A DNA stretch of 64,000 bases, taken from IMG/VR virus record IMGVR_UViG_2936514734_000001, positions 128,001 to 192,000 of that record, one strand, 5' to 3'. Positions within the stretch are counted from its first letter, which is position 1. Each line of letters starts with the position of its first letter. The translations under genes were made by a program, and so were the position numbers. Shown here in pieces: positions 2,860-16,717 of this stretch. The DNA is from a virus (taxonomy: Duplodnaviria > Caudoviricetes). The notes below the pieces were generated by a model that was given only the letters and a program-made list of their open reading frames with translations, did no database searches and was not told the origin of the DNA.

Positions 2860-3051
2860 TTACTCCCTCTTTGAAAAAATAAGTTTGTTACAATTAGTGC
2901 ACGAATATCGTATTTCAGTTTTTTCAGGGAGCTCGTTAAACTCTATCACTCTTCCAGCGGAATCTTTTTTATACGAGGCTAATACGCAAACCTCTTTTCT
3001 TAAATAGGCTTGTTCGCATTCACACCTAGTAAAATCCTCATGAAGTCTCAA
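2860..3051 (-). CDS. Small Cys-rich (Zn-finger) hypothetical protein
   Basis: CEC...CTNC; GGGAGG RBS. Confidence 0.6.
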   Translation of the reverse strand: MRLHEDFTRCECEQAYLRKEVCVLASYKKDSAGRVIEFNELPEKTEIRYSCTNCNKLIFSKRE

Positions 3052-3332
3052 TCATAATTCCTCCCTTGGATGTATTTACTGGTAGAAGTTATTTCCCCAT
3101 GTCTAACAACAAGTTATCTGCTATCCTAGGATAAGTAACTTGTTATATATTTCTATTCTTATATACCTTCAAAGTTAAAATCATTTATATCTGTATAGAC
3201 TTGGAAGATAAAAAGAAATATTAGTAAATAATTTGACAATGTTTTCTAATATAGTATAAATCGGTTTGTAAATTGAGTAAACATACTATTCGTGACTCAT
3301 AAGAAAACGCTTACATTAAAAAAAGAAAGCCT

Positions 3333-3740
3333 TCATCGGAAAGATGGCCGCTTTCTTAAAGTTACTGATCTATTAAGATTTCTATACTCTGATTTATTTA
3401 GATGGTTGTAGCACCTCTTAGTAATGGGTAGGCGCATTATTTTTAGGTCTGCCCACCACGGACCATAAGTAGCATTGTCCCATCCATAACCTATTAGCTT
3501 ATCGAGGTTAATTGCTGCATATCGGGTAACTTTTTCAAACCTGCAGTTACGCCTGTTGAAATAGTTAACCCAAAATGACAGCGAATCTTTAAATCTGTAT
3601 ACTACATTATTTGACACATACACAAGAACATGATGCTGTGTTTCTTCATCAAGCTTGATGCAATATATCTTTTCGTGAAAAGGTTGAAGTTCTGTAATTT
3701 CGTCTGGTAGCTTGCCTTGTACTTCGTAGATATCAGACAT
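3333..3740 (-). CDS. Stand-alone LytTR-type DNA-binding protein
   Basis: IYCI...SL...FEKVTRYAAINLDKL...LPITKR pattern resembles LytTR (F.R.HRSY.VN...I, lpvsR); no receiver domain. Confidence 0.65.
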   Translation of the reverse strand: MSDIYEVQGKLPDEITELQPFHEKIYCIKLDEETQHHVLVYVSNNVVYRFKDSLSFWVNYFNRRNCRFEKVTRYAAINLDKLIGYGWDNATYGPWWADLKIMRLPITKRCYNHLNKSEYRNLNRSVTLRKRPSFR

Positions 3741-3751
3741 ACTTTTTCACC

Positions 3752-3907
3752 TTAATGCCACCACCAAGATAAGCTTGAGGCTTCATATATAGATGAATCA
3801 TCAAAACCTGCCTCAGCTTGCATTGTGTCAGCTTCAGCATAAGCAACAGTGGCGAAGGTAGCTAAAATTAGAGACATTACAAAACCTAATGTAATTTTTC
3901 TAGTCAT
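3752..3907 (-). CDS. Unannotated 51-aa secreted pro-peptide (candidate signalling peptide)
   Basis: RBS GAGGAGGTG; MTRKITLGFVMSLILATFATVAYA-EADTMQAEAGFDDSSIYEASSLSWWWH; Sec signal with AYA cleavage site; start overlaps the upstream stop. Confidence 0.8.
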   Translation of the reverse strand: MTRKITLGFVMSLILATFATVAYAEADTMQAEAGFDDSSIYEASSLSWWWH

Positions 3908-4604
3908 GCTTGTTCACCTCCTCGATTGGTTTTAAGAATTGGATTTCATCGTGTTCTTTCTTTAAAGCATATGCTAGTAGAAAAACGAACACAAAAAATG
4001 AACTAATTGATAAGAATGTTAAGCTAGGGGTAATAGAATTAAGGTGTGTAAATATAATAGTAGAAGGAAGACAAAGTGATGCGCAAATTGATATTCCAAT
4101 TACTAAGTTACGCTCCCATTTGAAACGAATTCTTTCAAAATCAAATGTAAAACCCCATCCTTTTAGATAAAGCAAAACTGCTATTAAGCTATAAACCAGA
4201 CCAGAAGTAATATCCAAGGCATAATTGCGCCATATATGTTGTTTCAGTTCCGCCGGCATAAAAAAGCCAAACGAACTAAATATAATCCCGAGTTGAACCA
4301 CAAGCGGAAGAATAAGACCTCCCGAAACTGTCACCATTAATGACCAGATTGTTGGGATTTTAACTACAGCTGTTAGGTAGAGAAAGGTGATTAAGACTGA
4401 TATGATCGGGACCACATAACCAATTTTAGCATCCGTATTAAAATAGACTAAATAATTGATTATGCTATTTAAAAGTGAAACAACCGCAATCTTTTTAAAA
4501 TGACGACGTACCCTTAGTTGAAATAGGGCTGACATGATTACAAAAGTACCAATATTATAGATACTTTGTGATAGTACAAACCATTCTAAATTAGCGGAAT
4601 TCAA
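3900..4604 (-). CDS. Polytopic membrane protein (~7 TM), AgrC-sensor-like but with no kinase domain
   Basis: Successive hydrophobic helices; protein ends right after the last TM segment. Confidence 0.7.
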   Translation of the reverse strand: MNSANLEWFVLSQSIYNIGTFVIMSALFQLRVRRHFKKIAVVSLLNSIINYLVYFNTDAKIGYVVPIISVLITFLYLTAVVKIPTIWSLMVTVSGGLILPLVVQLGIIFSSFGFFMPAELKQHIWRNYALDITSGLVYSLIAVLLYLKGWGFTFDFERIRFKWERNLVIGISICASLCLPSTIIFTHLNSITPSLTFLSISSFFVFVFLLAYALKKEHDEIQFLKPIEEVNKHD

Positions 4605-4745
4605 ATATTTCTCCCCTTTTATTCTCTACTTCTACCTAGTAAAAATTTCATGCAGTTAATGTTTTCTTCCTTAATTGGGTGTCTTTTATCACAGGAATTA
4701 TTTTCGCATATATAGCCAATATAATCCACAATTTGATGATGAAAA

Positions 4746-5528
4746 TTAGATGACATTTCTGTTATTTTTCTGACCATTTTTACTAATTTGACTTCTCAAT
4801 TCTTCTACTTCTTCACGAAGTCTTCTTAGTTCCTGGTACATTTCTATTTCCATGTCAAATGACTTTACCAAATAAATAGATTCGTCATTTTTATAGCGGA
4901 ATGGTATTACCCAATACGGTCTGTTTTCTTGAAATGCTTCAAGCTCTTGCTTTTCAAGCCATTCTTTAGGAATACTGATAGTTTTCTCTCCTCGTGCATT
5001 TAACGTTCCCCTCTCTTTACATTCCATCAAATAGTCTTGGGTTTTGATGTCTCCTTTTGCATACCACATTGCTCCACTGTTGGCTTGACGCTTAGCGTCT
5101 TCAATAGGTTTTTTTCTCATTGTTGGTGTGGCACCCATTGTAGATAATGAAACTCGTGAAAGAGGATTTACAGGTATTTCTTTAGGGACTTCTTCCTTAT
5201 CATCAGATGATTCTACCTGTATACGAGGTTTTTGTATTTTAGTCTTTTTGTTCGATTGCTTGAAACCCGTAGAGGAAGTAGGACTTTTTGCTTGATAAGC
5301 TGAATTCCATTTCTTTGCTACGGTCTTTTCAAAGGCCATCCCCTCCTTTCGTTCGTCTTTATGAATTCGAAAAGCCGCATTACGCTCAGCTTGTTTTTTC
5401 TGTTCTCTTATTCTGAGCTTTTCTGCTCTTTCCTCATGACTGTTTTTATACAACCGCACACCATCACATAGGTGACAGAGTGCGGAATTCTCACACTTGT
5501 TATGAGTTTCTTGGCTACACTTATGCAA
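4746..5528 (-). CDS. PD-(D/E)xK nuclease, Holliday-junction-resolvase-like
   Basis: GMAFEKTVAK...NSGA...KGDI...LMECK motif; Cys-rich N-terminus. Confidence 0.55.
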   Translation of the reverse strand: MHKCSQETHNKCENSALCHLCDGVRLYKNSHEERAEKLRIREQKKQAERNAAFRIHKDERKEGMAFEKTVAKKWNSAYQAKSPTSSTGFKQSNKKTKIQKPRIQVESSDDKEEVPKEIPVNPLSRVSLSTMGATPTMRKKPIEDAKRQANSGAMWYAKGDIKTQDYLMECKERGTLNARGEKTISIPKEWLEKQELEAFQENRPYWVIPFRYKNDESIYLVKSFDMEIEMYQELRRLREEVEELRSQISKNGQKNNRNVI

Positions 5529-16508: not shown

Positions 16509-16717
16509 TTATTAATTCCTCCAAAAATAAATTACAAATGTTATTATAACTCCAATAATTTGACAATGAAGAAAAATGACAGAGATGTCATATAGTATTC
16601 ATAATACCTATGTATCTCTGCCATTCCTTTAATTTATCTAAAAATATTATATTTTTTCTATATACAGAATAAAGTTTTCGAGTAGTTTTTTTCTTGTAGA
16701 AACGTATTCTGTATTAA

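Follow-up and report, generated by a model that had tools for sequence, protein, structure and literature searches.

In arbitrium (AimP) and in the Phr/PapR systems, the signal precursor starts with a signal peptide, continues with a variable spacer and ends with the short active peptide, and the receptors are cytoplasmic RRNPP proteins, so that re-import of the peptide is required. To our knowledge, the phage peptide communication characterised so far (arbitrium, Rap-Phr) uses cytoplasmic receptors; agr genes have been reported in phages, and our literature search found no tests of their function. The canonical agr system combines a membrane sensor kinase, a LytTR-type response regulator and a cyclic peptide that AgrB forms by cleaving off the C-terminal tail of AgrD (PMC10482373). 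In the LRS systems HdrRM and BrsRM, a stand-alone LytTR protein is paired with a membrane protein that is not an enzyme (Zou et al. 2018, PMC6193735); the membrane protein inhibits the regulator. Finally, a cassette of AgrB, AgrD and membrane proteins without HATPase_c has been mentioned, merely in passing, for the phages Davies, Emery and Abouo (Hargreaves et al. 2014, PMC3901668).

The locus described here lies in a window of 64,000 nucleotides (the whole stretch of DNA that was analysed) from a single-contig virus record of 239,374 bases, a phage-plasmid of Priestia megaterium (239 kb); P. megaterium assemblies encode near-identical proteins (97%). The presence of RepA_N and of an actin-like partition protein (57.3–59.6 kb of the window), together with synteny to pBtic235, a jumbo plasmid prophage, identifies the element as a pBtic235-like phage-plasmid. 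The cassette is surrounded by genes of nucleotide metabolism and recombination, lies at a distance of 53 kb from repA and comprises the following features:

3900..4604, minus strand: predicted kinase-less seven-helix membrane sensor, 234 aa, TTG start (structure model, profiles, dN/dS)
3752..3907, minus strand: ORF of a predicted 51-aa pre-pro-peptide (conserved slot, strong ribosome-binding site, tail in 15 distinct loci)
3333..3740, minus strand: predicted stand-alone LytTR-fold DNA-binding protein, 135 aa, no receiver (family Pfam matches, predicted structure)
4700..4777, minus strand: candidate operator/promoter element, non-coding and conserved (7 aligned phage upstream regions)
3312..3356, minus strand: terminator-like hairpin with a U-tract at the operon end (conserved in relatives, fold energy)

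The initial annotation had noted three tightly linked genes at this position, namely a protein of about seven transmembrane helices without a kinase, a small ORF with a strong ribosome-binding site and a stand-alone LytTR-like protein, and the ORF read-out contains all three on the minus strand. The peptide ATG (3907–3905) lies within the end of the membrane gene, with 8 nt shared by the two reading frames, and is preceded, 7 nt upstream, by GAGGAGGTG, while 11 nt separate the peptide stop from the LytTR ATG; the overlap of stop and start and the 11-nt gap are as originally described. Only the statement that the small ORF is unannotated has to be amended: NCBI lists it as a hypothetical protein in P. 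megaterium and in pBtic235. Homologous three-gene cassettes were found, in which peptide, kinase-less sensor and stand-alone LytTR recur as a unit in the same slot order, and the small ORF retains its slot next to sensors that are 29–75% identical, which argues that it is not a chance reading frame.

The closest relatives of the locus are the uncharacterised kinase-less agr cassettes of Paenibacillaceae and of the phages Davies, Emery and Abouo, which share with it a homologous membrane protein (hhalign clade-to-clade E-value 1.9e-38) and, among the relatives fetched, the stand-alone LytTR and the gene order: the sensor comes first and LytTR last, and the sensor carries a cytoplasmic G-F-x-F-x-F motif. 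They differ in encoding agrB and a tailed AgrD in place of the tail-less, signal-bearing aromatic peptide found here, and in the conserved polar membrane residues of the sensor. Canonical agr (PMC10482373) resembles the locus in the sensor fold, the LytTR output domain and a five-residue peptide core starting with Ser/Thr, whereas the kinase, the receiver, AgrB and the C-terminal tail of the peptide are all missing here, and the amphipathic leader of AgrD is replaced by a Sec-type signal. The similarity to LRS (PMC6193735) extends beyond the stand-alone LytTR and its non-enzymatic membrane partner to a likely phosphorylation-free mode of control and to repeats upstream of the operon. In LRS, however, the membrane protein belongs to DUF3021/DUF2154 (neither of which is matched by any of 93 members of the AgrC-like sensor family), its gene follows that of the regulator instead of preceding it, and there is no cognate peptide; moreover, the LRS repeats are 9-bp direct repeats, spaced by 11–13 bp, that lie immediately upstream of the -35 site and are bound by the regulator, while the element described here shows no clear fit to a 9 bp–12 bp–9 bp pattern, has a periodicity of roughly 20 bp and occurs also in phages without LytTR. 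With arbitrium and Phr/PapR the locus shares the precursor layout (by inspection) and the location on a mobile element, but the cassette neighbour of the peptide is a membrane protein and not a cytoplasmic TPR receptor, and no match to AimR was found in the element. By its defining features the cassette thus falls outside canonical agr, LRS and arbitrium and is a variant of the kinase-less agr-derived cassette; by analogy, it would be expected to work like agr sensing without phosphorylation, with a precursor laid out like Phr or AimP.

The 135-aa protein itself shows no Pfam LytTR match, but 7 of 11 aligned members of its family match PF04397 (best E-value 2.5e-5). The assignment is supported by the predicted structure (pLDDT 86), for which the top 13 matches in the PDB are LytTR structures without exception, including 3D6W (E-value 5e-4; a LytTR domain from B. 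cereus), ComE and AgrA. The protein is too short to accommodate a receiver domain, and none was found. The gene evolves under purifying selection (dN/dS 0.04–0.16 where computable), and in L004 it is an open frame with a probable ATA start. LytTR is present in 10 of the 17 loci with an aromatic-tail peptide, one of the other 7 being cut at a contig end. The Pfam LytTR search of the genome missed even the query, so that distant LytTR proteins could escape it, and the absence of LytTR from the pBtic235-type replicons therefore rests on the family alignment.

The 234-aa protein was modelled with seven long helices (pLDDT 85) and a predicted N-out, C-in topology, derived from the distribution of K/R in alternate loops and at the C-terminus. 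Domain searches revealed no kinase domain, and the length of the protein also excludes a histidine kinase. Searches of Pfam, NCBIfam and PHROGs with the three query proteins yielded nothing useful, scanned with one protein at a time, viral contigs and the INPHARED phage set revealed no relatives, and PDB fold searches with the sensor returned generic helical matches only; a match to 7TMR-DISM was too faint (E-value 0.004) and was rejected. The profile search, in turn, identified 91 relatives, mostly of 200–240 aa. Three lines of evidence lead us to conclude, from sequence profiles and models, that the protein corresponds to the sensor domain of AgrC-type (AgrC/HPK10) proteins minus the kinase. 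First, a structure search of the Atlas aligned it with the N-terminal part of GHKL kinases (TM-score 0.68 over 214 residues). Second, in 401 Bacilli genomes the matches to long ORFs were confined to the first ~225 residues of proteins of 418–471 aa; 9 of the 10 such ORFs that were fetched directly precede agrB, and L121, the only one with clear Pfam matches, contains HATPase_c_5 (L116 has none). Third, hhalign related the sensor family to the kinase N-termini (P=96%, E=4.5e-9; reversed control 0.2%), a comparison that is partly circular, as the kinase set was chosen with the same family profile. A narrow profile of 19 sequences against a single kinase gave no significant match, and the link hence depends on the broader profiles and on structure. 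Longer, fused relatives of the sensor were not found, but the same search also missed known kinase relatives. The sensor gene is under purifying selection as well (dN/dS 0.12–0.33).

Inspection of the 51-aa peptide bears out the Sec-like signal, acidic pro-region and aromatic tail ascribed to it at the outset: a basic N-region leads into a hydrophobic core with a hydropathy of 2.5 in its best 10 residues, the putative signal (residues ~1–24) ends with A-Y-A at residue 24, the pro-region has a net charge of -6, and the C-terminal core reads S-W-W-W-H. Fifteen distinct peptides (16–82 aa) accompany the sensors of this clade; 12 of them begin with basic residues and have a strong hydrophobic core, and 8 contain an A-x-A-type motif near residues 21–25, as judged by a simple pattern, whereas spacer length and sequence vary freely. 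The tail is far more constant. Position -5 is occupied by S (7), T (7) or Y (1), compared with a background of 35% S/T/Y in the preceding residues, position -2 by W (14) or F (1), position -4 almost throughout by Trp and position -3 by Trp or Pro; the last residue (-1) is variable. In distant members Phe, Pro or Arg takes the place of Trp and the hydroxyl residue at -5 stays constant. Two further checks were made once the pattern had been fixed: the short ORF of L159, an unlabelled member of the same branch, carries Thr at -5, and the P0042 sensor, picked solely by the signature of the clade, adjoins a signal-bearing peptide ending with T-W-P-W-E. A search of viral contigs with a nucleotide pattern of the tail gave 54 stretches, none of them with the sensor, and a literature search covering few subscription papers found no description of the peptide or the cassette.

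The signal peptide is shortened or absent in L020, L021, L030 and L159. In the large plasmids pBWB401 and pH3-552 (L020:4698–4778 and L021:4698–4781) the peptide gene encodes 26–27 aa, with most of the signal core gone and the tail retained, and is missing from the gene tables of those records; the sub-branch of L030:3214–3264 and L159:2190 has peptides of 16–19 aa with a strong ribosome-binding site and no signal peptide.

The AgrD proteins of the relatives show a Ser five residues ahead of an H/N-Q-P/E tail (25 of 30 matches to a noisy pattern), and five residues is the known size of the AgrD ring (PMC10482373). The last five residues of the aromatic peptides are therefore in register with the AgrD lactone ring, and the peptide resembles an autoinducer core shifted to the very end of its precursor, ending right after it, without the tail on which AgrB acts. 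Searches for AgrB (PF04647) came up empty in the element, pBtic235 and the whole genome carrying L026, and no peptide-modifying enzyme adjoins the cassette. The missing tail and the missing AgrB together suggest that the product is probably linear. Linear peptides do not activate staphylococcal AgrC (PMC10482373), so that such a ligand would require a remodelled pocket.

Sensor homologues occur in 127 of 401 Paenibacillaceae genomes, usually in the order sensor-agrB-agrD-LytTR, and in 55 fetched loci the middle slot of sensor-X-LytTR holds agrB, with or without agrD, with LytTR behind. As this order mirrors agrC-agrB-agrD-agrA, the Paenibacillaceae cassette looks like an agr operon minus the kinase and the receiver. 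Chromosomal Paenibacillus variants (L008–L010, L013, L157, L168) have either sensor, AgrD and LytTR without agrB, or sensor and LytTR without a peptide, which implies that their signals are supplied in trans. L046 and L047 encode a kinase-less sensor, agrB, agrD and then a 253-aa protein with a receiver-like start, possibly an intermediate in the loss of the two-component pair, to judge from sequence. In the sensor tree all aromatic-tail sensors fall into one branch (support 99/95), nested among the kinase-less agrBD sensors, in which agrB is absent and the middle slot is taken by a different small ORF, usually with a Sec-type signal. Leaving aside L024, L030, L167 and L159 (the contigs of the first three are too short to show genomic context), the members of this branch reside on jumbo phage-plasmids, plasmids or prophage-like DNA. 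Two distant loci have an MpsC/DUF2294-like gene after the cassette (L025:3904–4287, L026:3980–4369), and L030 possibly as well.

At the sequence level all evidence points to descent of the cassette from agrC-agrB-agrD-agrA by loss of the kinase and the receiver, followed by replacement of agrB and agrD, rather than to the hybrid of arbitrium/Rap-Phr, agr and LRS parts that the initial annotation had envisaged. What is new is the sensor clade with an AgrB-less, signal-type peptide, the parent cassette having been mentioned already in 2014 (PMC3901668). The sensors of the agrBD type conserve F12/S13/E16, R54 and Q131 (83–97%), while those of the aromatic-tail clade have S12 (100%), Q13, R126, N127 (100%) and D131 at the switched columns; F152, F154, K162, E164 and K216-E217 are common to both kinase-less groups and mostly missing from the kinases. 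The switch of the receptor columns, which represents one evolutionary event and not independent replicates, would fit a new ligand with a retained output.

Taken together, the cassette is probably a kinase-less agr-derived sensing unit with a switched ligand class, and the best reading of its signal is an AgrB-independent, probably linear peptide sensed by the kinase-less protein. It is very likely, judging from the comparisons above, that the peptide is the ligand of the membrane sensor. The peptide would be exported by Sec and the signal cut after A-Y-A, host proteases would trim the spacer, and an aromatic peptide of 5–7 residues with a free C-terminus, most likely linear, would bind the outer face of the sensor; from what is known of related families, export, trimming and binding, taken together, appear likely. 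For the next step the balance tips only slightly in favour: the cytoplasmic face of the sensor may control LytTR directly, as proposed for the LRS partners (PMC6193735) and perhaps by the release or sequestration that the initial annotation had in mind, in which case signalling without phosphorylation would proceed via the conserved cytoplasmic loop (residues 150–164) and the C-terminal helix. With similar reserve, the LytTR protein may act on the promoter of its own operon and on other phage promoters.

The pBtic235-type elements are informative in this respect. Sensor and peptide are retained in pBtic235, in a viral relative of 245 kb and in two plasmids of the B. cereus group, and alignment with the family found no LytTR of this kind anywhere on the replicon. 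Their sensors nevertheless remain under selection (dN/dS ~0.21 at dS 0.67), with the cytoplasmic motif and the upstream element retained, so LytTR is not the sole output, and there must be another partner or function in these elements. In pBtic235 the peptide orthologue is transcribed, and mitomycin C co-induces the sensor (log2FC 5.7) and the peptide (5.5), i.e. ~50-fold (PMC9700832, Suppl. Data 1), similarly to the neighbours of the cassette (4.9 and 5.7); gp7 represses both genes, as it does neighbouring ones (PMC9700832). This expression suggests that the module comes on as the phage develops lytically; it may convey how dense the surrounding population of infected cells is. On the DNA studied here, reads from a single RNA run matched 204 nt, which carries no information on expression.

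A complete chain from a Sec-exported linear aromatic peptide through the kinase-less AgrC domain and LytTR to a developmental decision of the phage, with the last residue setting group specificity, can be proposed only tentatively. If true, it would be phage communication of an undescribed kind, with a peptide derived from the agr ring core and sensed at the cell surface, and would provide a case of surface sensing without phosphorylation. The cassette would also document a case in which an AgrC-type pocket has exchanged, in nature, its cyclic ligand for a probably linear one, and would mark candidate pocket residues (positions 12–16, 54 and 127–131) in a receptor class on which there is little structural information (PMC10482373). 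Testing should be easy, as the ligand is short and synthesisable, no processing enzyme is necessary, and pBtic235 offers a sensor-peptide pair with published RNA-seq data.

Could the output be the choice between lysis and the plasmid state, as had been suggested at the outset? In an arbitrium-like switch the peptide would build up in the course of infection and favour or maintain the plasmid prophage via the sensor and LytTR. We regard this as somewhat unlikely, although several facts agree with it: the element is a plasmid prophage lacking a recognisable AimR, the variable last residue of the peptide resembles a pherotype, the expression seen on induction would suit a signal produced in infection, and the L027 cassette lies two genes behind an MrpR-like repressor, near yorF. 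On the other hand, the clear-plaque deletion of pBtic235, which removes quiescence functions, falls within 212–230 kb, while the cassette is at 52–53 kb; pBtic235 forms lysogens without a LytTR of the cassette family; and the metabolic and recombination surroundings of the cassette, its distance from repA and an induction in pBtic235 that matches that of its neighbours do not single it out. With the evidence from pBtic235 set against the neighbour in L027, a role in lysis/lysogeny is possible but not the leading expectation for the phage.

It is also conceivable, if unlikely, that sensor and peptide are directed at the host or at co-resident elements, for example by pairing with a host LytTR protein or HPK10 kinase, or by jamming the agr-type signalling of competitors with an AIP mimic. 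Long retention of sensor and peptide under purifying selection without LytTR would be explained in this way, 3D6W indicates that such hosts possess LytTR proteins, and inhibition of AgrC tolerates varied peptide sequences (PMC10482373); yet LytTR accompanies 10 of the 17 aromatic-tail loci and is itself under purifying selection. More doubtful still is cyclisation of the peptide by an unlinked enzyme, joining the Ser/Thr at -5 to the C-terminal carboxyl in an AIP-like lactone. The hydroxyl residue is invariant at exactly the ring position, but AgrB closes the ring by cleaving off a C-terminal tail (PMC10482373), which these peptides do not have. The replicons and the L026 genome likewise yielded no AgrB, nor the cassette an adjacent modifying enzyme. 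Leader and arrest peptides have precedents in rtpLP and MifM of B. subtilis. That the small ORF is such a cis-acting leader, gating LytTR translation by Trp-codon stalling or secretion-monitoring arrest, is highly improbable, for although the stop codon, which overlaps the Shine-Dalgarno sequence of LytTR, comes after three Trp codons and a signal with a conserved C-terminal tail is the layout of an arrest peptide, pBtic235-type loci keep the tail where only a terminator comes next, distant members exchange Trp and not the -5 hydroxyl residue, and the ORF sits in the agrBD slot beside a peptide-sensor fold.

The candidate operator/promoter element upstream of the sensor gene (4700..4777) is an imperfect palindrome ATGACA-N4-TGTCAT inside two imperfect repeats with a spacing of ~20 bp; a weak extended -10-like site comes after it. 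A matrix built from the LytTR-carrying phages only gives the LytTR-less phages 33–35 bits, compared with 13 in a shuffled genome. The -10-like motif has 2 sense matches in 115 upstream regions, which rules it out as a genome-wide class of phage promoters. A perfect ATGACA-N4-TGTCAT, the only one in the genome, lies at 16564–16620 of the window between recA and a 372-aa DUF2325-like gene and is the second-best match to the cassette element (18.9 bits, 13 in the shuffled genome); from sequence similarity, the two sites possibly share a regulator.

At the other end of the operon, the terminator-like hairpin (-13 kcal/mol, z -2.6) is conserved in relatives; a scan with a terminator consensus did not call it. 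A conserved gene for a 63-aa Cys-rich protein follows (window 2860–3051). In L005:3436, L007:3439, L020:4842 and L015:3099 the upstream element occurs a second time, after the cassette and before this gene; in the window this second copy is unrecognisable and an inverted repeat is found in its place (~3098–3145). The gene upstream of the cassette (4746–5528) matches a Holliday junction resolvase family (phrog_2002, E-value 1e-16), and at 784–1680 a membrane-anchored coiled-coil protein with a 3D peptidoglycan-related domain is encoded, syntenic in all jumbo relatives.
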